Below, piece after piece: positions 3,352 through 62,946 of a stretch of DNA of 64,000 nucleotides. Below the pieces are notes generated by a model. That model searched no databases and was not told the DNA's origin. It worked only from the letters and a program-made list of their open reading frames with translations. Position 1 is the stretch's first letter; every line of letters begins with the position of its first letter. Location: positions 33,894-97,893 of the forward strand of contig DATJMX010000030.1 in the NCBI GenBank assembly GCA_035508495.1, given 5' to 3'. Source of the DNA: Candidatus Binataceae bacterium (GTDB taxonomy: Bacteria; Desulfobacterota; Binatia; Binatales; Binataceae). Made by a program: the position numbers and the translations under genes.

Positions 3352-3452
3352 GAAAGCAGAAGGGAAAAAGATCGCCACAAAGGCACAAAGGACACTAAGG
3401 AAGATCCGCCGAAGCGGCGTCGCGCCGCTTCGCTTAGTGCCCTGGTGCCTAA
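3352..3452. repeat. dispersed repeat family D copy
   Basis: CACAAAGGCACAAAGGACACTAAGG ... GAAGCGGCGTCGCGCCGCTTCG ... CTTAGTGCCCTGGTGCCTAAG, an inverted-repeat architecture around a GC hairpin. Confidence 0.6.
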
Positions 3453-8180: not shown

Positions 8181-9356
8181 ATGAATCAATCCGCGCGTCA
8201 ACTTGCAGACTGTATCGATCGCGTTCGACAGCTTGGCCCGACCATCACGGGACACGCCGCCGAGTCCGAGCGGCTCGGCCAACTCGCGCCAGCAATCGTC
8301 GACGCGTTTCACGATTCGCGCTTGTTCCGCGCTCTCTTACCGAAAGAACTGCACGGCTTCGGGCTGACGATTCCCGAGCAGAACGAAGTGATTGAGGAGG
8401 TCGCGAGCTTCGACGGCGCCGCCGGATGGAACTTCGCGATAGGCTCGGGCGGCCCTGCGATTGCAGGCTTCGTCGCGCGCGATGCATTCGAGGAAATCTT
8501 CTCCGACCCGCGCGCACTCGTCGCCGGATCGTTCAGCCCGATGGGCAATACCGCCGTGCGATGCGACGGCGGCCATCGCTTCACCGGCAAGTCCACCTTC
8601 GCCAGCGGCTCGGCCCAGGCGACCTGGCTCACGGCCAACGGCGTCGAGCTCATCGACGGCGCACCGCAAATCCAAAACGGCATTCCGCGCTTCAAGGCCG
8701 GGATGATGCCGATCAAGCAAGCGAAGATTCTCGACACCTGGTCAGTCTCCGGACTCTGCGGCACCGGCAGCAATGACGTGGTTTTCGAAAACGTCTTCAT
8801 TCCTGAAAAGTTCACCTTTGATTTTCCCAACGCCAAGCCCACCTGGCAGAAGGGCGCGCTCGCACAGATTCCCCTGATGGTGCAACTCGGCGGCGCGCTC
8901 GCGTCGGTATCATTAGGGATCGCGCGTCACGCGATCGAAGCGCTCAAGGAACTCGCGATCTCCAAGGTCCCCCTCGGCACGTTCGCCTCGCTGCGCGAGC
9001 GTCCCGTCGCGCAGCTTCAGTTAGGCGAGGCCGAAGGCACGCTGCAGGCGGCGCGCGCGTATCTGCATCAGAGCGTCAACGAGGTCTGGCGCAAAGGCGA
9101 AGCCGGCGAGCCGTTCGATCTGCCCACGCTCGCAGCCGCGCGCCTTGCGACGGTGACTGCGGGCAAGCTAGCCGCCCGCGCCGTTGACCTCATCTACGAC
9201 GCCGCCGGAATCAGCGCGATGCAGACCGCGCTGCCGATCGAGCGATGCTGGCGCGACGTACATGCAGTCACCCAGCACGTAACGATGAACACCGCCCGCT
9301 ACGAAGTAGTCGGCCGCATCCTGTTCGGCCTGCCGCCAACGACGCCGTTGGTTTAA
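8181..9356 (+). CDS. acyl-CoA dehydrogenase-fold flavoprotein (group D flavin-dependent monooxygenase-like)
   Basis: About 390 aa with an ACAD-like domain layout. It sits next to the aromatic catabolic genes. Confidence 0.55.
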   Translation: MNQSARQLADCIDRVRQLGPTITGHAAESERLGQLAPAIVDAFHDSRLFRALLPKELHGFGLTIPEQNEVIEEVASFDGAAGWNFAIGSGGPAIAGFVARDAFEEIFSDPRALVAGSFSPMGNTAVRCDGGHRFTGKSTFASGSAQATWLTANGVELIDGAPQIQNGIPRFKAGMMPIKQAKILDTWSVSGLCGTGSNDVVFENVFIPEKFTFDFPNAKPTWQKGALAQIPLMVQLGGALASVSLGIARHAIEALKELAISKVPLGTFASLRERPVAQLQLGEAEGTLQAARAYLHQSVNEVWRKGEAGEPFDLPTLAAARLATVTAGKLAARAVDLIYDAAGISAMQTALPIERCWRDVHAVTQHVTMNTARYEVVGRILFGLPPTTPLV

Positions 9357-9516
9357 GCGACACGCCCTGGAATGTGGCGTGAGCCGCGCGGCTACGTGTC
9401 CAACTGCGGGCAGGGACGCCCATAGGGACGCGCACCCCACAGATTCTTAGAGGCATATTGCGCCCGTTCATCAACAGTCACCGCCCAGCGACCATTCGTC
9501 ATGATCGAAAAATTCC

Positions 9517-9592
9517 GTCATCCCCAGCGAAGTCGAGGGATCTTGGAGGCCCCCAAAGGGGCCGGTGCCAAACATCGCGCGCAGCGCTTTCG
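9517..9592. repeat. dispersed repeat family C copy (GTCATCCCCAGCGAAGTCGAGGGATCTTGGAGGCCCCCAAAGGGGCCGGTGCCAAACATCGCGCGCAGCGCTTTCG)
   Basis: Near-identical units at 27101-27178 and 56821-56905, and a partial one at 28998-29013. It creates the spurious N-terminal extension of ORF 9501. Confidence 0.7.
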
Positions 9593-9659
9593 TTTGTTGC
9601 CTGTGAACCCCGCCGCAACATCCTGCCGCCCATCCCACATTCTGGTAAGGTCACGATCG

Positions 9660-11135
9660 ATGGAGACCCGGCTATTCATCAACGGCGCGTATGTCGATGC
9701 GGCGGGCGGCGCGCGCTTCCTTGATATCGAACCCGCAACCGAACGCGAGCTCGCCCAAATCGCGAGCTCCTCCGATGCCGACATCGACCGCGCCGTCGCC
9801 GCCGCGCGCGAAGCCGCCGATCGTGGTCCATGGCCGCGCATGAGCGCCGAGACGCGCGGCAAAATCCTCGGCCGCTTTGCCGATACGATCGAGCGCCACG
9901 CGCGCGAGCTCGGGATGCTCGAGGCGCGCGACGTCGGCAAGCCCGTCGCCGAATGCGTCAATCACGACGTCGCGCGCGCCGCGCGCAATATCCGCTTCTT
10001 CGCCGCCGCCGCCGAAACCTGGACCCAGGAAGCCGCCGCGAGCGAGGCGAAGTTCCTCAGCCGCGATCTGCATCTCGTCAACTTCACTGAGCGTCCGCCA
10101 CTCGGAGTCGGCGCGATCGTCATCCCGTGGAATTCGCCGATCATGCTCGGCACCTGGAACCTCGGCCCCTGCCTCGCCGCGGGCAACACCTGCGTGTTGA
10201 AGCCATCGGAGCTTGCGCCGCTCACGTCGATCGCCCTCGGCGCGATCGCCAATGAAGCGGGTCTGCCGCCCGGCGTGCTCAATATCGTGCCCGGCCTTGG
10301 CGATGCGGGCGCGGCACTCGTGGCGCATGCTGGAGTGCATGCGATCGCGTTCACGGGCGGTGTCGCCACCGGCAAGCGCGTGATGGCTGCGGCGGCCGAG
10401 TCGCTCAAGCGCGTTACGCTCGAGCTCGGCGGCAAGTCGCCGAACCTCGTCTTTGCCGACGCCGACCTGAAGCTCTCCGCCGCAGGCGTCGCGCGTTCGA
10501 TCTATCGCAGCCAGGGACAATCGTGCGTTGCGGGATCGCGCCTGCTCGTCGAGCGGCGCATTGCCGACGATTTTATTTCAAGGCTCATCGCGGAAATTCC
10601 CAAGCTCAAAATCGGTGACCCGCTCGTCGATGGCACCGAATATGGCCCTCTGATCTCGGGCGCCCATCGCGAGCGTGTCCACGCCTTCGTCGCCGAAGCG
10701 ATCGCATCGGGCGCGAAGCTGCTCGCGGGAGGCAAGGTTCCCGAATTGCCGCGCCCCGGGTTTTACTACGAGCCGACGCTTCTCGACGAAGTTGACGAGA
10801 AGTCGCACGCCGTCAACGAAGAGATATTCGGGCCCGTCCTGACGATCGAGCGCTTTGACGACGAGGACGGCGCAATCGCAAAGGCCAACGCCTCGCGCTA
10901 CGGCCTGGCGACGTACCTGTGGACCTCCAAAGTCGATCGCGCGTTGCGCGTAGCGTCGCGGATCAAAACCGGGATGGTCTGGGTCAACAGCTTTTTCCTG
11001 CGTGACCTGCGCACGCCCTTCGGCGGCGCCAAGCAGAGCGGCCTCGGCCGCCAGGGCGGCCGTTTCAGCCTCGAATTCTGGACCGAGCCGAAGCTCGTGT
11101 GCCTGGCCTATGGCGAGGAGGAGCGCGATGGGTGA
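9660..11135 (+). CDS. NAD(P)-dependent aldehyde dehydrogenase (semialdehyde dehydrogenase of a meta-cleavage pathway, HpaE-like)
   Basis: ALDH family hallmarks: ELGGKSP, a catalytic Cys region QGQSCVAGSR, and EEIFGPV. Start at METRLFINGAYVD; stop overlaps the next gene by 8 bp. Confidence 0.8.
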   Translation: METRLFINGAYVDAAGGARFLDIEPATERELAQIASSSDADIDRAVAAAREAADRGPWPRMSAETRGKILGRFADTIERHARELGMLEARDVGKPVAECVNHDVARAARNIRFFAAAAETWTQEAAASEAKFLSRDLHLVNFTERPPLGVGAIVIPWNSPIMLGTWNLGPCLAAGNTCVLKPSELAPLTSIALGAIANEAGLPPGVLNIVPGLGDAGAALVAHAGVHAIAFTGGVATGKRVMAAAAESLKRVTLELGGKSPNLVFADADLKLSAAGVARSIYRSQGQSCVAGSRLLVERRIADDFISRLIAEIPKLKIGDPLVDGTEYGPLISGAHRERVHAFVAEAIASGAKLLAGGKVPELPRPGFYYEPTLLDEVDEKSHAVNEEIFGPVLTIERFDDEDGAIAKANASRYGLATYLWTSKVDRALRVASRIKTGMVWVNSFFLRDLRTPFGGAKQSGLGRQGGRFSLEFWTEPKLVCLAYGEEERDG

Positions 11136-14996: not shown

Positions 14997-15048
14997 TGAA
15001 TAACCTCGCCTTGAATAACCTCTCCCGTTTTGCGGGCGAAATTATTCA
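14997..15048. repeat. collapsed remnant or solo inverted-repeat of MITE family A (TGAATAACCTCGCC + TTGAATAACCTCTCCCGTTTTGCGGGCGAAATTATTCAA)
   Basis: Matches the terminal inverted repeats of the 238-bp element at 44113-44350. Confidence 0.55.
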
Positions 15049-21053: not shown

Positions 21054-21248
21054 ATGGCCGATAAAGACGACATCTTGTTGAATTCGCGTGAGGTCGCGTT
21101 TCTTCTGGACCTCAGTCCCGACACGGTCAATGAATTTGCCCGCCGGAATATTATTCCCGCCTTCAAGAAGGGCCGCCAATGGCGCTTTCGCAAGCGGGAC
21201 ATTACCTCAGTTAAACGACAGTTAAGGGGGATCAACGCTGCCGCTTGA
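21054..21248 (+). CDS. small HTH_17 / excisionase-family (MerR-like) DNA-binding protein
   Basis: LLNSREVAFLLDLSPDTVNEFARRNIIPAFKKGRQWRFRKRDI; a paralogue of 61632-61826 (LPAFKVGSDWRF). Lies in a visibly AT-richer stretch after secD. Confidence 0.5.
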   Translation: MADKDDILLNSREVAFLLDLSPDTVNEFARRNIIPAFKKGRQWRFRKRDITSVKRQLRGINAAA

Positions 21249-25671: not shown

Positions 25672-27084
25672 TTGGCGAACACACGTTACGACCTCGTGGT
25701 TATCGGCTCGGGACCCGGCGGATATGTCGCTGCGATCCGCGCGAGCCAGCTCAAAATGAAAGTCGCGGTTATCGAGCGCGATCGGCCCGGCGGCGTATGC
25801 CTTAACTGGGGATGTATCCCGTCGAAGGCGCTGCTCAACTCGGCCGAGACGATGGAGAAAATTCGTCACGCAGGGAAGGAGCACGGAATCGAGGTCGGCG
25901 AGATCAAGTTCGACTTCACTAAAGTGATCGCGCGCTCGCGCGGCGCCGCCGAGAAGCTCTCCAAGGGCGTGCTGTTTCTCCTCAAGAAAAACAAGATCGA
26001 TTTCTACCCGGCGAGCGCCTCGATCACCGGGCCTAATACCGTCGCACTCGCGCAGGCCGAAGGTCTGCCGGCACCAGCGGCGCCAGCGCTCGATGCGGAC
26101 AAAATTTTGATCGCCGCAGGATCGGGCGAGCGGCTTTTCCCCGGCATGAACGTCGGCGACGGCGTTGTGACGAGCAAGGAGGCTCTCGTGCTCGACAAGC
26201 TGCCCGCGAGCGTCATCGTCATTGGCGCCGGCGCAATCGGATGCGAGTTCGCATATTTCTACCAATCGTTCGGCGCCAAGGTGACGATGGTCGAGCTCGA
26301 AAAGCAGATGCTCCCCGGGATGGACGCCGAGGTCGCCGAGGAGCTGCGGCGCGCATTCGTGAAACGCGGCGTCGCCGTGATGCTCGGGCATGGCTACAAG
26401 TCGATGGCGAAGCACGGCGACCTGTGGTCGGTTACGCTCGATGCGTCAGGGACTGCGAAAACCCTCGAAGCCGAAGCTGTCCTCGTCGCGGTCGGGCGCA
26501 CGCCGCTCAGCCGCGACATGGGCCTCGAGAAACTCGGCATCGAGGTCGAGCGCGGCGGATTCATAAAGATTGATGAGTCATTCCGCACGGCCGTGCCGAG
26601 TATCTGCGCGATCGGCGACGTGGTGCGCCCGCCGTTGCTCGCTCATAAGGCGTCAGCCGAAGGCATCGCGGCCGTCGAAATCATGGCGGGAGTGCGCGAG
26701 CCGGGCTTCGATCTGCTGTCGATCCCCGGTTGTATTTATTGCATCCCAGAGGTCGCGACCGTGGGATTGAGCGAGGCCGACGCCAAGGCGCGCGGCCTCG
26801 AGGTGAAAGTCGGCAAGGTGCCGTTCCGCGCGATCGGCAAAGCGGTCGCGATCAACGAGGCGGAAGGCTTCGTGAAGATCGTCGCGACCACCCAATACAG
26901 CGAAGTCGTGGGATGCCAGATCATCGGCCACAACGCGACCGACATGATCTCCGAAGTGGTGCTGGGCAAGACCCTCGAAGCGACGACCGCCGAGCTCGGC
27001 CGCACCGTCCATCCGCATCCCACGATGTCCGAAGGTATAATGGAAGCCGCGCTGAACGCGGAAGGCGAGTCGATCAATTTTTGA
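25672..27084 (+). CDS. lpdA: dihydrolipoyl dehydrogenase (E3)
   Basis: YDLVVIGSGPGGYVAAIRA FAD motif, redox disulfide GGVCLNWGCIPSKALL, C-terminal HPHPTMSE. TTG start. Confidence 0.9.
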   Translation: MANTRYDLVVIGSGPGGYVAAIRASQLKMKVAVIERDRPGGVCLNWGCIPSKALLNSAETMEKIRHAGKEHGIEVGEIKFDFTKVIARSRGAAEKLSKGVLFLLKKNKIDFYPASASITGPNTVALAQAEGLPAPAAPALDADKILIAAGSGERLFPGMNVGDGVVTSKEALVLDKLPASVIVIGAGAIGCEFAYFYQSFGAKVTMVELEKQMLPGMDAEVAEELRRAFVKRGVAVMLGHGYKSMAKHGDLWSVTLDASGTAKTLEAEAVLVAVGRTPLSRDMGLEKLGIEVERGGFIKIDESFRTAVPSICAIGDVVRPPLLAHKASAEGIAAVEIMAGVREPGFDLLSIPGCIYCIPEVATVGLSEADAKARGLEVKVGKVPFRAIGKAVAINEAEGFVKIVATTQYSEVVGCQIIGHNATDMISEVVLGKTLEATTAELGRTVHPHPTMSEGIMEAALNAEGESINF

Positions 27085-27100
27085 TGATGAATGACTCTCT

Positions 27101-27270
27101 GTCATCCCGAGCGAAGTCGAGGGATCTTGGTGGTCCCGAAGGGACTGGTGCCAGACATCGCGCGCAGCGCTTTCATAATGAAAGGGCGCGGTCCCGCCCG
27201 CTGTCCGGAACCGGCCCCTTCGGGACGCTCCGAGATTCTTCGACTCCGCAGACTCCGCTTAGAATGACGG
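27101..27270. repeat. full-length palindromic MITE-like element of repeat family C (two inverted arms)
   Basis: Arm 1 TGTCATCCCGAGCGAAGTCGAGGGATCTTGGTGGTCCCGAAGGGACTGGTGCC...; the reverse complement of the 3' end (CCGTCATTCTAAGCGGAG...CCCGAAGGGGCCGG...) mirrors it. Confidence 0.6.
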
Positions 27271-27323
27271 AATAGATGGCAGCCAGTGATCGAGGGGACG
27301 ACAGGTAGTAGAGCGTAGTTTTT

Positions 27324-28028
27324 ATGAGCCCGCACAGATCACTCGATGTGGCGCGGCTGGGCGTCGTTCAGTATGAGACGGCGCTTACGCTGCAGACTGC
27401 GATGGTCGCGGCGCGTATCGAGGATCGTATCGGCGATACGCTCCTGCTCCTCGAGCATCCGCACGTGCTCACGCTCGGGCGCGGCGCTGACGAACGGTTT
27501 ATCGTCGATAACGGGGCGCATCTTCCGGTGTTTCGCGTCTCGCGCGGCGGCCAGGTCACGTATCATGGGCCCGGCCAGCTCGTTGCGTATCCGATTCTCA
27601 GGCTCGAAGGCGCGGCGCGCGACGTGGGTGCGTATCTCAGGAATCTCGAGCAGGTGATGATCGACGCGCTCAGCCGTTACGGAATAGTCGCCGAGCGGCG
27701 CAAGGGCCTCACCGGCGTATGGATCGGGACGCGCAAGATCGCATCGATTGGCGTGGGGCTCAAGCGCTGGGTGACTTATCACGGTCTCGCGATCAATGTT
27801 TCGACGGATCTGGATCGATTCGCCGCAATTGTTCCGTGCGGAATTGATGGATGTGAGATGGCATCAGTAGCCGGCGAAGGCCATCCGGAAGTCACGATGC
27901 GCGAGTTCGGCGACGCGCTCGCGATGGCGTTCGGCGCGGTGTTCGGCCACGACGTCATCACGACGATCGAAAGCGCGGCGCTGTGGCGGCTCGTTGATAC
28001 ATCCGCGAATATCCCGCAAGCTCGGTGA
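27324..28028 (+). CDS. lipB: lipoyl(octanoyl) transferase
   Basis: HPHVLTLGRGAD and RVSRGGQVTYHGPGQLVAYPIL, with a catalytic Lys region. Confidence 0.9.
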   Translation: MSPHRSLDVARLGVVQYETALTLQTAMVAARIEDRIGDTLLLLEHPHVLTLGRGADERFIVDNGAHLPVFRVSRGGQVTYHGPGQLVAYPILRLEGAARDVGAYLRNLEQVMIDALSRYGIVAERRKGLTGVWIGTRKIASIGVGLKRWVTYHGLAINVSTDLDRFAAIVPCGIDGCEMASVAGEGHPEVTMREFGDALAMAFGAVFGHDVITTIESAALWRLVDTSANIPQAR

Positions 28029-28897: not shown

Positions 28898-29406
28898 TTC
28901 GGCCCGAACGAATTCAGTGGGACGTCCACCCTACTATTTTTCGAACAGCACCATTGCTCACTGTTTGTCGTGCTGAATGGTTGGCTGCTATCAACTCCGT
29001 CATCCAGAGCGGGCCGCCACGAGCCACCTGCCAGCGTCTTCGATGAAAAGCTCCTTCCACTCGTGTTCTGCCTCCTCATTTCACTCACGAGCACAGGGGC
29101 TGCCGTGCGGAAACTGGAACGAAGTTTCAATACTTTACCGTTTCGGCCCGCTGCGGTTGAAAATGATTTTGCGGGAGGCGATCTATGAAAAAACGCTGGA
29201 CACCTTGGGGCAGTGGTGATGGACACCAGGGTACCGTTCCAGTGGATATCGAAATAGACAATTCGGAAGAAGCTCGCACAAACTTGCAAGCATTCGCTGA
29301 GGTGGGTGTTTCAGCTCTTTATAAAGATCAGCTCTCGTTTTTCAAGAAGCCGCCGGAGCGTGTTGACATAACGAGAGGTCGCTCGACACTTCGACCTTCT
29401 GCGCTT

Positions 29407-29754
29407 TCAGTCCGTCAGGTCCAGCACTTCTTTGATCGCTTCGCCGATTTTAGCCATCAGCGGAGCGTCGAACGTTACCAGCGGCCCTTCGATGAGGCGG
29501 CGGTTGTCGATTGCGCGCATCTGGTCGATGAGCAAATCGGAGCGCTCGCGCAGCTTTCCCGCGGGCAACATCCCGATGCGAAGCGGTTCCGCACCCGGGA
29601 TGGTGTTGGTGGTCAAGGGAATGATTAGTGTCGAGGGATAGGATTCGTCGAGCAGGACTTGAGCCTGAACGATCAGGACGGGGCGAAGCTTGGCCGGCTC
29701 GGCGCCGCGTTTGGGGTTCAGATTCGCGAGCCACACTTCGCCGCGATTAGGCAT
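29407..29754 (-). CDS. mazF: MazF/PemK-family type II toxin endoribonuclease
   Basis: MPNRGEVWLANLNPKRGAEPAKLRPVLIVQ is the classic MazF/PemK N-terminus. Confidence 0.8.
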   Translation of the reverse strand: MPNRGEVWLANLNPKRGAEPAKLRPVLIVQAQVLLDESYPSTLIIPLTTNTIPGAEPLRIGMLPAGKLRERSDLLIDQMRAIDNRRLIEGPLVTFDAPLMAKIGEAIKEVLDLTD

Positions 29755-29983
29755 CGGGGTTACGCTCGGCCGCCTCGAACTCGGCGCTTACGCGCATGTT
29801 CTCCTTGCGGACTTTGCGCGAGGCGCTCACCAGTCGATCGGCTCGAAGCCTTGCCTCGGTATCGCGGTTCATCCGCTCGATCGCTTGCCGGATGTATTCG
29901 GCGCGGGCGAGCCCGAGCGCGCGGGCATTTCGTTCGCTACGCTCGAGAGTGCCTTGGGGCAACTTGAGGGAAATGGCTTCCAT
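29747..29983 (-). CDS. ribbon-helix-helix (CopG/MazE-like) antitoxin
   Basis: 78 aa, RHH-like (AEYIRQAIERMNRD); overlaps the mazF start by 8 bp. Confidence 0.6.
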   Translation of the reverse strand: MEAISLKLPQGTLERSERNARALGLARAEYIRQAIERMNRDTEARLRADRLVSASRKVRKENMRVSAEFEAAERNPDA

Positions 29984-31087: not shown

Positions 31088-31200
31088 AAATTCCCGTGCG
31101 GGAAGGGAAAGAGAGTTAGTTTTTTTCTGGATTCGGCTTGAGTAAAAAATCCAGAAACGACCTAAACCCCTAGCCCCTTCCGGCACGGGAAGGGGAACCG
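31088..31200. repeat. MITE-like palindromic element, repeat family B (TTCCCGTGCGGGAAGGGAAAGAGAGTTAG ... spacer hairpin ... ACGACCTAAACCCCTAGCCCCTTCCGGCACGGGAAGGGGA)
   Basis: Inverted arms with an internal TCTGGATT/AATCCAGA hairpin. Related copies at 58364-58471 (full) and 41921-41962 (single arm). Confidence 0.65.
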
Positions 31201-41920: not shown

Positions 41921-41962
41921 TTCCCTTCCCGGTGCGGGAAGGGGACAGGGGTTAGGTCGTCT
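41921..41962. repeat. single-arm copy of repeat family B (TTCCCTTCCCGGTGCGGGAAGGGGACAGGGGTTAGGTCGTCT)
   Basis: Matches the arms of the elements at 31088-31200 and 58364-58471. Confidence 0.55.
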
Positions 41963-42023
41963 GTCTTGATTCTGACGGAAGGAAGACTCTCGGATTAGTC
42001 CGCTGACAAAGGGAGGCCGTCAA

Positions 42024-44112: not shown

Positions 44113-44350
44113 TGAATAACCTCGCCCGCAAAGCGGGAGAGGTCGGATGGCGAGGAGCTTGAGATGTCTGAGTTCAAGCTGCTTGCCATCCGGGCGAGGG
44201 TGCAGCGGCGGGAGCGTGCAGGAACTTCTCGCTGCTAACATTCTGCCAGCTTCGAACGCCGCACCCTCACCCGCACGTCACGGCGCATGCGAAAAAAACG
44301 CAACCGCTGCGCCGCGCGACCTCTCCCGCGATGCGGGCGAGGTTATTTGG
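44113..44350. mobile_element. 238-bp MITE-like element (family A) with about 33-bp terminal inverted repeats, inserted between the LLM oxidoreductase and obg
   Basis: Left end TGAATAACCTCGCCCGCAAAGCGGGAGAGGTCG; right end CGACCTCTCCCGCGATGCGGGCGAGGTTATTTGG, whose reverse complement is CCAAATAACCTCGCCCGCATCGCGGGAGAGGTCG. A collapsed copy sits at 14997-15048. Confidence 0.65.
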
Positions 44351-56760: not shown

Positions 56761-56820
56761 CGATGCGGAGGCTCCGAGCCTTTCCGTCGCCCATTTAAAT
56801 CGTTGGCCGCGATCGAGTCC

Positions 56821-56930
56821 GTCATCCAGAGCGGTGACCGCGAAGGATCTCGGAGGCCCCGAAGGGGCCGGCACCGGTAAGCGCGCGAAGCGCTTTCCTT
56901 AAGCGCGATCTATCGCGAGAAAACGCTTAA
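56821..56930. repeat. repeat family C copy (CGTCATCCAGAGCGGTGACCGCGAAGGATCTCGGAGGCCCCGAAGGGGCCGGCACCGG...) with CTTAAGCG/CGCTTAAG inverted tail
   Basis: Matches 9517-9592 and 27101-27270; its 5' end matches the partial copy at 28998-29013. Confidence 0.6.
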
Positions 56931-58363: not shown

Positions 58364-58471
58364 CTTCCCTTCCAGTGCAGGAAGGGAAAGAGGGTTAGGT
58401 CGTCTCTTTTTCTGAAAAGATCTCAGACAAACGACCTAACCCCCAGCCCCTTCCCGCATCAGGACGGGGGG
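58364..58471. repeat. MITE-like palindromic element, repeat family B, full copy
   Basis: CTTCCCTTCCAGTGCAGGAAGGGAAAGAGGGTTAGGTCGTCT, a spacer, then ACGACCTAACCCCCAGCCCCTTCCCGCATCAGGACGGGGGGG. Confidence 0.65.
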
Positions 58472-60352: not shown

Positions 60353-60470
60353 AAAAGCAGAAGCAGTTACCACCAAGGCACGAAGACACTAAGCGAAGCG
60401 GCGCAGCGCCGCTTCGTTTATTACCTTACTGACTTTCTGCCTTCGTGCCTTTGTGGTTCTCTGCCTGCCT
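60353..60470. repeat. dispersed repeat family D, best-preserved copy (ACCAAGGCACGAAGACACTAAG + GCGAAGCGGCGCAGCGCCGCTTCG + inverted CCTTCGTGCCTTTGTGGTT)
   Basis: Inverted flanks around a 10-bp GC stem, located at the 3' end of the methyltransferase gene. Confidence 0.6.
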
Positions 60471-61336: not shown

Positions 61337-61631
61337 GTTCGCTGACGGCTTGTTTAGTTAGTCTGCTTTCGTCCCGACTTGGGACAGAGCGTCCGCGATA
61401 GGACGAGGATGCCGCACGGCTGCGGAAATCGGCCAAGAGGTCGTTTTCGTGGCCTGATCGTCAATTTTGCGTCGCCCCGCCAAAAACATATCGACTGAGG
61501 CCATCCTTTTTTTGCCATCTTTCGCTACGATGCGTGATTTTTCCGAGCGCATTCTCCGGCACGCCGCTTGCGAGGTACGCAAACAAGTCTTGAATCGGCG
61601 AGCAAACGGTGGGAATGAGGAGGTTTGCGTA

Positions 61632-61826
61632 ATGGTGAAGAACGAAAGCAGTCGTGTCCTGACGGTCAAAGAACTGTCTGATTATTTGAAAGTGCATCCA
61701 TCGACGATCTACCGGCAGCTCAAGCGTGGTCGTCTTCCGGCGTTCAAAGTCGGCAGTGACTGGCGGTTTAATATCGAATCGATCGATCGCTGGCGCCTGG
61801 AACAGGACAGCTTCAAGGCGCTGTAA
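61632..61826 (+). CDS. small HTH_17 / excisionase-family DNA-binding protein (paralogue of 21054-21248)
   Basis: LTVKELSDYLKVHPSTIYRQLKRGRLPAFKVGSDWRFNIESIDRW; GAGGAGG RBS. Confidence 0.55.
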   Translation: MVKNESSRVLTVKELSDYLKVHPSTIYRQLKRGRLPAFKVGSDWRFNIESIDRWRLEQDSFKAL

Positions 61827-61920: not shown

Positions 61921-62118
61921 TGCAAGGAAGCGCGGCGGAAGCGCGAAGCGGTCCGAGGTGATTTGGCCCCCAAAAACCCCTTTTTTGCCCTAAACCATGT
62001 TGAGGGTATCGCCAGTCATTTGAAGTGATTGGCTGCGACTTACTCCGAGCCTTCGCGGCAGCCGCTCAGGATGACGGATTCGATCGCAGCGATAGGATCA
62101 GACGATAGAGTCATCTCC

Positions 62119-62192
62119 AAAAAAATACAGTGGGGTGGGCGTCCCTGCCCGCCATTAAGATGGCGCGCTGCGCGCCTTCGATGGCTGTGAAA
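62119..62192. repeat. repeat family F copy 1 (GGTGGGCGTCCCTGCCCGCCATTAAGATGGCGCGCTGCGCGCCTTCGATGGCTGTGAAA)
   Basis: About 75-bp direct repeat with two internal palindromes (GGGCGTCCCTGCCC; GGCGCGCTGCGCGCC). The second copy is at 62871-62946. Confidence 0.6.
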
Positions 62193-62870: not shown

Positions 62871-62946
62871 AAAAATCGGTGGGGCGGGCGTCCCTGCCCG
62901 CGGTTAAGATGGCGCGCTGCGCCGCCTTCCATGGCTGTGAAAAAAG
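62871..62946. repeat. repeat family F copy 2
   Basis: GGTGGGGCGGGCGTCCCTGCCCGCGGTTAAGATGGCGCGCTGCGCCGCCTTCCATGGCTGTGAAAAAA, a direct repeat of 62119-62192. Confidence 0.6.

Follow-up and report, generated by a model that had tools for sequence, protein, structure and literature searches.

CGTC-tagged REPs (families CGTC-1 to CGTC-4) were described from five phyla, and include the Neisseria repeat dRS3 (CGTC-1) and the Rickettsia elements RPE-4 and RPE-6 (Di Nocera, De Gregorio & Rocco 2013, BMC Genomics 14:522; PMC3733652). They carry an unpaired CGTC tag, often TGTC and with CCTC tolerated, followed by a stem of 8–9 bp that starts with an A-T and then a T-A pair, a loop of 4–5 nt and a 3-nt tail that is usually CCA (PMC3733652). 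Dimers mostly have their tags outside and are separated by spacers of 20–100 bp, which can form stem-loops of their own (PMC3733652). The repeats are placed after genes and, unlike the GTAG REPs, have no dedicated transposase (PMC3733652). In the NIMEs of Neisseria, the 20-bp dRS3 flanks more than 100 families of cargo sequences of 50–150 bp, and dRS3 is also known as a phage integration site (PMC1797815).

A repeat family, hereafter family C, was studied in a 64,000-nt stretch of DNA from Candidatus Binataceae bacterium (GenBank contig DATJMX010000030.1), which is referred to as the window and to which all positions apply unless a locus number (L) is given. Judged by its sequence, family C appears best filed under the CGTC-tagged REP superfamily, in a phylum (Binatota) that had not been described for that kind of repeat before.

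Copies of family C in the window

Four full units of about 85 nt and two head-only fragments were found in the window (Table 1). A 40-nt degenerate core pattern matched exactly the three plus-strand units and had no match in 100 dinucleotide-preserving shuffles, and a profile HMM trained on 15 units of the window and a related JGI metagenome recovered the four arms with E-values of 2e-21 to 1e-20. Run over 81 kb of the 117.9-kb ENA metagenome contig ERZ27256562 k141_1080140, the HMM found no copies besides four arms and two head fragments. The public contig (L121, L125, L128) was 99.67–99.94% identical to the window, with small indels, for example near 9493–9510. A LipB identical to that of the window is recorded at NCBI under a Candidatus Binataceae bacterium.

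Table 1. Positions and composition of family C copies and of further small repeats in the window.
Feature	Position	Strand	Full unit or head fragment	Tag	E-value	Other parts	Site
C1 one-armed full unit	9513–9597	+	9513–9597	CGTC, 9516–9519	2e-21	head hairpin; GGCCCCC-AAA-GGGGCC hairpin; GCGCGCAGCGC mini-hairpin	between ACAD gene (8181–9356) and ALDH gene (9660–11135)
Left arm of two-armed element, subtype C1	27098–27178	+	27098–27178	TGTC, 27100–27103	3e-21	head hairpin 27104–27125; hairpin 2 about 27127–27154; mini-hairpin 3 27160–27170	starts 16 nt past the lpdA stop codon
Right arm, inverted, subtype C2, long-loop head	27181–27286	−	27181–27272	reverse complement (GACG), 27266–27269	8e-21	outer extension GAATAGATGGCAGCCAG 27270–27286	
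C2 one-armed full unit	56803–56902	+	56817–56902	CGTC, 56820–56823	1e-20	5' extension 56803–56819; extended apical stem GCGG-TGA-CCGC in the head	between Transgly_assoc gene and 420-aa ORF
Truncated copy	28981–29012	+	28994–29012	CGTC, at 28996	0.002	5' extension, tag and 5' half of the head only	84 nt downstream of lipA, adjoining the PemK/MazF toxin-antitoxin insertion
Head-only copy	62050–62093	−	62050–62093	reverse complement, at 62075	5e-5	with 5' extension; without hairpins 2 and 3	between HTH_17 gene and SnoaL gene, antisense to both
Further small repeats, first group	2227–2267, 3410–3450, 60394–60434						
Further small repeats, second group	31091–31128, 41927–41964, 58370–58468						
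Further small repeats, third group	9408–9450, 62122–62173, 62871–62922						

Family C is a genuine repeat in the window. The original prediction, made from the letters of the window, had placed units at 9517, 27101 and 56821, where they were indeed found, but the identity of more than 80% that it gave for all three holds only between 9517 and 27101 (81%). The unit at 56821 is about 60% identical overall and 78% within the 40-nt core, its lower overall value being due to the longer loop in its head. The partial copy suspected at 28998 was recovered as a truncated head (E = 0.002), and the four loci that had been named were all present, but a fifth, the head-only copy at 62050–62093 on the minus strand, had been missed. 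Chance similarity or a purely local duplication, for which nothing speaks beyond the small copy number in one window, is refuted: besides the empty shuffle control, ten further loci were present in metagenome Ga0335073 and the exact head occurs at at least 120 loci. The local-duplication alternative that had been attached to the original prediction thereby falls.

Together, the two arms at 27100–27286 make up a heterodimer with its tags outward (HH), which measures about 170 nt tag to tag. That a second, inverted arm follows the first at 27101–27270 was borne out by the 81% complementarity of segments 27133–27164 and 27195–27226 and by the predicted fold of the lpdA-lipB spacer (27085–27323), which has a free energy of −114 kcal/mol (z = −5.8). 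Outside the head, 15–17 nt with the consensus TTGGCyGCnATCnAnTC are conserved in the right arm and in the copies at 56821, 28998 and 62075; since this C2 extension reaches beyond the tag, the element does not physically end at its tag in every case. The extra bases outside the C2 tag are comparable to the 41-bp palindrome in which the CGTC-1 dimers of Halothiobacillus are embedded (PMC3733652). A coding origin of the extension, considered for its seeming variation at every third base, was rejected: it lies outside called genes and occurs on either strand, the compensatory y:r change in the head would swap Leu/Pro and Lys/Arg, and flanks compared across phyla carry no information.

Small repeats abound in the Binataceae source genome. 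The window has at least three further small intergenic families (CGAAGCGGCGCAGCGCCGCTTCG plus CACTAAG, TTCCCGTGCGGGAAGGG.. and GGGCAGGGACGCCC; positions of further small repeats in Table 1). A second two-armed repeat, of 234 nt, lies at 44115–44347 (hairpin ACCTCTCCCGC..GCGGGCGAGGT) and also at 15018–15048; a repeat of this type follows lipA in a relative (L142, 1964–2197) with 84% identity.

Structure of the unit

Each unit consists of a 29-nt head, tcCGTC-ATCCyGAGCG..CGArGGAT-CT, and two further hairpins. The head (tcCGTC-ATCCyGAGCG-(3 to 24 nt)-CGArGGAT-CT) runs from the unpaired tag through a 5-bp stem, a tandem G.A/A.G and a GC/CG step to a GNA loop, so that its stem comprises five Watson-Crick pairs, the tandem G.A and one or two more Watson-Crick pairs, 8–9 positions in all. 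The sequences GCGAAGC and GCGCAGC are classic, very stable DNA mini-hairpins. Hairpin 2 has the form TyGG-a-GGCCCC-gaa-GGGGCC-ggtn-CCrG, and hairpin 3 is a second mini-hairpin, GCGC-gna-GCGC, which is followed by TTTC.

The three hairpins of the arms are kept paired by compensatory changes. Over the 15 units, 94.9% of the cells were paired in the three-hairpin fold, vs. 32–55% when the partners were slid, and two-sided changes were found in five pairs, values that none of 500 shuffles reached. One pair in the lower stem of hairpin 2, for example, is C-G in eight sequences and U-A in seven, and of the 125 heads among the matches listed, 76 have T-A at the y:r pair, 44 have C-G and 5 have another combination. 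In the stems of the tag strand, 11 G.T pairs stood against 2 A.C pairs, a weak hint that this may be the strand that folds; the excess would equally fit selection on an RNA. The variable segment of the head measured 3–4 nt in 104 of the 125 heads among the matches listed and 5–23 nt, often self-paired, in the other 21, which include the window copies at 56821 and 27270.

With the CGTC-tagged REPs, family C shares a CGTC or TGTC tag and a stem that opens with A-T and T-A (pair 17-74 was A-U in 13 of 14 sequences, pair 18-73 U-A in all 14). Its stem numbers 8–9 positions, counting the tandem G.A, and its loop is short in most heads. Shared as well are the prevalence of HH dimers, the structured spacers of 20–100 bp, the intergenic position mainly after genes and the lack of a linked transposase. 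It differs from them in the make-up of the stem (ATCCyGAG../..CGArGGAT with a tandem G.A and a GNA mini-hairpin) and in its tail, which is CTy rather than CCA: CTT or CTC was found in all window copies, and C was the commonest base directly after GGATCT (61%) across phyla among the matches listed. It also differs in that a subset of family C-type heads has structured loops of 11–23 nt, and in that the Binataceae head is fused to two more hairpins in a unit of about 85 nt, with subtype C2 reaching 15–17 nt beyond the tag. Binatota and most of the roughly 16 phyla recorded here lie outside the five phyla reported in 2013.

Orthologous junctions and copying between loci

Comparison with relatives showed that the sites of family C are occupied in some genomes and empty in others. 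The lpdA-lipB spacer, which measures 239 nt with the element, has 13 nt in L142 and L143 (LipB 81% identical) and 4 nt in L146 and L147 (74%). In L140 and L144 the same spot is occupied by different repeat families, and hairpins related to the 44115–44347 repeat occupy the spacer there (L140, 100–160; L144, 3100–3280). Because several repeat families fill this spacer, it can be regarded as an insertion hotspot. The unit between the ACAD and ALDH genes is common to the window and its closest relative L150, at the same site (ALDH 91% identical), and is absent from L151 (ALDH 85%) and L152 (84%), where the ribosome-binding region and start codon are conserved.

The whole C1-left/C2-right heterodimer was found again in metagenome Ga0335073 (L135) with 80% identity over 173 nt, at an unrelated, non-syntenic locus; other dimers were present in L131 and L133. 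The two-armed element is thus evidently copied as a block. Two short-read contigs from other samples (L123, L124) begin exactly at 27101, as is expected of a high-copy repeat. Taken together, the mixed orientation of the copies (see below), the empty orthologous sites, the copying as a block and the assembly breaks rule out a gene-specific leader and a local duplication.

Gene context and orientation

In the Binataceae contigs, copies were located between genes only and never within called genes. The neighbours first named from the sequence (ACAD/ALDH, lpdA/lipB and lipA/PemK) proved correct, and so did the suspicion that the coding extension of ORF 9501 is spurious, as the ALDH start is placed at the ATG at 9660 both in the public annotation and in orthologues without the unit. 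Whether the unit always lies sense to the downstream gene had been put forward as the check that would tell an RNA leader from a mobile repeat. Orientation was mixed: between co-directional genes of the Binataceae set, three copies were sense (9517, 56821, L139) and three antisense (L130, L136, 62075), and of the 52 heads between co-directional genes across phyla, 27 were sense and 25 antisense (matches listed; crude gene calls), which speaks against a leader.

A leader, terminator or mRNA stabiliser that acts in cis as RNA and is selected at particular genes would account for the covarying hairpins, for the preponderance of G.T over A.C on the tag strand, for copies shortly past stop codons, and for heads being rarer between divergent (9) than convergent (17) genes (matches listed; crude gene calls). 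We consider it very unlikely, as sense and antisense copies are equally frequent in both sets, the neighbouring genes are unrelated to each other and the unit is absent at orthologous junctions of relatives. Moreover, a terminator scan detected no sense-strand hairpin with a U-tract in the arm. Rfam 15 at the gathering score returned no match in the window and only one unrelated tRNA in 31 other head-bearing loci, and a search of 27050–27330 with an E-value threshold gave only a chance match to PhotoRC-I (E = 9). As a side effect a role in RNA is plausible, but it would not explain why the family exists.

Several other readings of the sequence were tried and rejected. A promoter-like match within the left arm was single and not conserved in the other copies; a hammerhead or K-turn interpretation of CUGA/GAUGA failed as the core motifs do not fit; and the signal of GC skew was too weak for inferring the replication strand. 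Two genes for HTH_17 (excisionase-like) proteins of 64 aa each were noted at 21054–21248 and 61611–61805, one of them just upstream of the head-only copy at 62050–62093. A PemK/MazF toxin gene and its small upstream partner (29407–29983, minus strand) lie between lipA and an FeS-assembly gene; this pair looks degraded in L146 and is absent from L140 and L144, and the truncated head at 28981–29012 is located beside the pair of the window.

Distribution of the head across phyla

In a collection with one genome per species, the exact head pattern (25 specified bases) occurred at at least 120 loci in about 16 phyla, whereas the pattern of head plus hairpin 2 had no match in the same collection; the full unit is therefore lineage-specific. 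Hosts of the head comprised Alpha-, Beta- and Gammaproteobacteria, Bdellovibrionota, 'delta' lineages, Acidobacteriota, Planctomycetota, Verrucomicrobiota, Omnitrophota, Gemmatimonadota, Chloroflexota, Armatimonadota, Bacteroidota, Bacillota, Actinomycetota, Patescibacteria, Binatota and candidate division FCPU426. Isolates were represented among the matches listed by Vineibacter terrae (12 loci), Reyranella, Bifidobacterium aquikefiri and Gordonibacter, and megabase long-read contigs were also among the carriers. Among the matches listed, the flanks beyond the head carried essentially no information across loci. Of the 125 heads listed, 50 had an HH partner (median span 87 nt), 12 a TT partner, 26 a tandem partner and 51 none. 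Partial matches on ten plasmids (cyanobacteria, Granulicella and others) and two viral contigs with the head give no sign of a plasmid or phage carrier in these collections. Nothing relevant to the exact head sequence was found in the searchable literature.

Different cargos stand behind one head in different lineages, and the NIME (dRS3-RS-dRS3) is the closest architectural parallel to this head-cargo-head arrangement, by analogy of a short GC-rich palindromic head that flanks many cargo families of 50–150 bp in an intergenic mosaic. The head sequences differ, being ATTCCC-N8-GGGAAT in the NIME and ATCCy-N13-rGGAT in family C, which does not fit the dRS3 consensus. NIMEs, in addition, form long arrays near surface-protein genes, whereas family C occurs in the window as dispersed singles and one dimer near housekeeping genes.

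Were the heads recombination or attachment sites, as dRS3 is in Neisseria, for a site-specific recombinase or an integrating phage, cargo would be shuffled rather than transposed. The dRS3-RS-dRS3 layout, the classification of dRS3 as CGTC-1 (PMC3733652, PMC1797815), the exchange of cargo behind one head by lineage and the array forms of Peptoniphilus (described below) would agree with this. It is nevertheless unlikely, given that no recombinase or prophage adjoined the heads, that the window has dispersed single units and no arrays, and that viral contigs with the head numbered only two.

A Peptoniphilus MAG (37% GC) contained mosaic arrays repeated in tandem every 370 nt or so (L016, 2540–4500; L107, 3300–6000), in which many short- and long-loop CGTC heads are interleaved with long terminator-like hairpins. 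These arrays have no Rfam match and bear a likeness to the NIME arrays of Neisseria or to arrays of small transcription units. In several loci (e.g. L027, L030, L057, L088 and L089), a tandem repeat of the head's 5' half, CGTCATCCyGAG, precedes a complete head by about 20 nt, which might be a scar left by slippage or by several rounds of nicking and rejoining. On plasmids of Planktothrix agardhii, near-complete heads were located under annotated MmeI-type and BREX PglX methyltransferase genes, and may represent intragenic REP insertions like those reported for CGTC REPs.

Search for a partner enzyme

The ORFs of the head-bearing loci (at least 120) were clustered all against all, and Pfam families were assigned to 130 immediate neighbours. 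No clusters emerged beyond the usual large families (ABC transporters, two-component systems, SDR, acyl-CoA enzymes and others), and no recurring transposase was found among the ORFs of the 120 head loci listed. Among the 130 immediate neighbours no Pfam family occurred more than three times, and the families that they shared included no transposase or integrase. An autonomous IS with these terminal repeats was likewise not found in the 120 head-bearing loci listed, and no transposase was called in 81 kb of the source contig. The inverted heads at 56806–56849 and 62047–62090 had been considered as ends of a 5.2-kb composite transposon, which was rejected as the interval contains no transposase, its contents being EF-P, a methyltransferase, a luciferase-like oxidoreductase and an HTH gene.

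These results bear on the possibility that family C is a classical MITE, i.e. a deletion derivative of an IS with a DDE transposase, whose terminal inverted repeats serve its movement by cut-and-paste. The ends of the two-armed copy are inverted, other genomes commonly carry HH pairs and presence or absence varies at orthologous sites; a size of 80–180 bp and an intergenic position are further likenesses to bacterial MITEs such as Correia and Nezha. However, no target-site duplication was seen at the 27100/27286 borders or at HH dimers elsewhere, the empty sites being too diverged to give the exact junction, and no parent IS was found in the loci examined. The presumed TIR is itself a covarying hairpin with apical insertions of 3–24 nt. 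The ends of family C would be recognised as hairpins, unlike the duplex TIRs of MITEs. About 40% of the heads among the matches listed are single, single arms are as common as pairs, and no transposase recurs near the heads of the 120 loci listed. A classical MITE is accordingly improbable in our estimation. Of the two readings in the original prediction, MITE and RNA leader, a mobile repeat is favoured, but the strict MITE is unsupported because the terminal repeat is a covarying hairpin, singles are as common as pairs, and neither a target-site duplication nor an IS with such ends was found. Family C is better placed with REP/BIME-type repeats, and specifically with the CGTC-tagged class, than with strict MITEs.

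REPINs and the BIMEs of E. coli, which are mobilised by RAYT (TnpA-REP), resemble family C in that two inverted imperfect palindromes make up one long hairpin and singlets are remnants, and in being non-autonomous, intergenic and of high copy number. The foot of family C, however, is CGTC or TGTC in place of the guide tetranucleotide GT[AG]G, and the 81 kb read of the source contig showed no RAYT gene. REPIN-RAYT pairs are, furthermore, lineage-specific and vertically inherited, whereas the CGTC head is common to several phyla.

Proposed mode of spread

On balance, family C is probably a mobile CGTC-type REP/NIME-like mosaic element, a reading in which we have moderate confidence; we infer its mobility from comparative presence and absence. 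It would be a lineage-specific mosaic repeat of the Binataceae genome, built on a CGTC-tagged REP head and two cargo hairpins. The HH heterodimer at 27100–27286 would be its REPIN/BIME/NIME-like form, copied as a block, and the one-armed units and head-only pieces would be halves or decayed copies of it. Spread would be non-autonomous: once extruded in single-stranded DNA, the head hairpin could be the substrate of an enzyme from another locus that cuts and rejoins it or recombines it. An HUH/Y1 RAYT-like nuclease and a Piv/IS110-like recombinase, as acts on Neisseria dRS3, are the candidates suggested by two precedents. Where transcribed, the very stable hairpins would probably be incidental 3'-end protectors or insulators between genes, for instance lpdA and lipB. 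Against this explanation stand the CTy tail, the two non-Watson-Crick positions of the stem, the long loops of some heads, the C2 extension and the G.T excess.

A wider reading concerns the 29-nt head itself (TCCGTCATCCyGAGCG-nAG-CGArGGATCT), which is near-invariant in at least 16 phylum-level groups and has sharp borders and lineage-specific cargo. It is possible, and we propose it tentatively, that the head is recognised and spread or recombined by a widespread trans-acting enzyme or by a universal host machine.

Implications

For annotation, it is relevant that the units give rise to spurious antisense ORFs and N-terminal extensions, one example being the 53 codons added to the ALDH gene, and that they break short-read assemblies. 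The lpdA-lipB junction, which holds three different repeat families among the relatives and is empty in others, is a natural place to study landing sites. With family C, the CGTC-tagged REPs, a class without a known mobilising enzyme, gain both a further phylum and a composite form that is new to them. The occurrence of the exact head in roughly 16 phyla provides a handle for phylogenetic profiling, in which head presence is compared with gene families and which could identify that enzyme. If the wider reading of the head is true, family C of the Binataceae would be one cargo class of a pan-bacterial mobile system without a known transposase.
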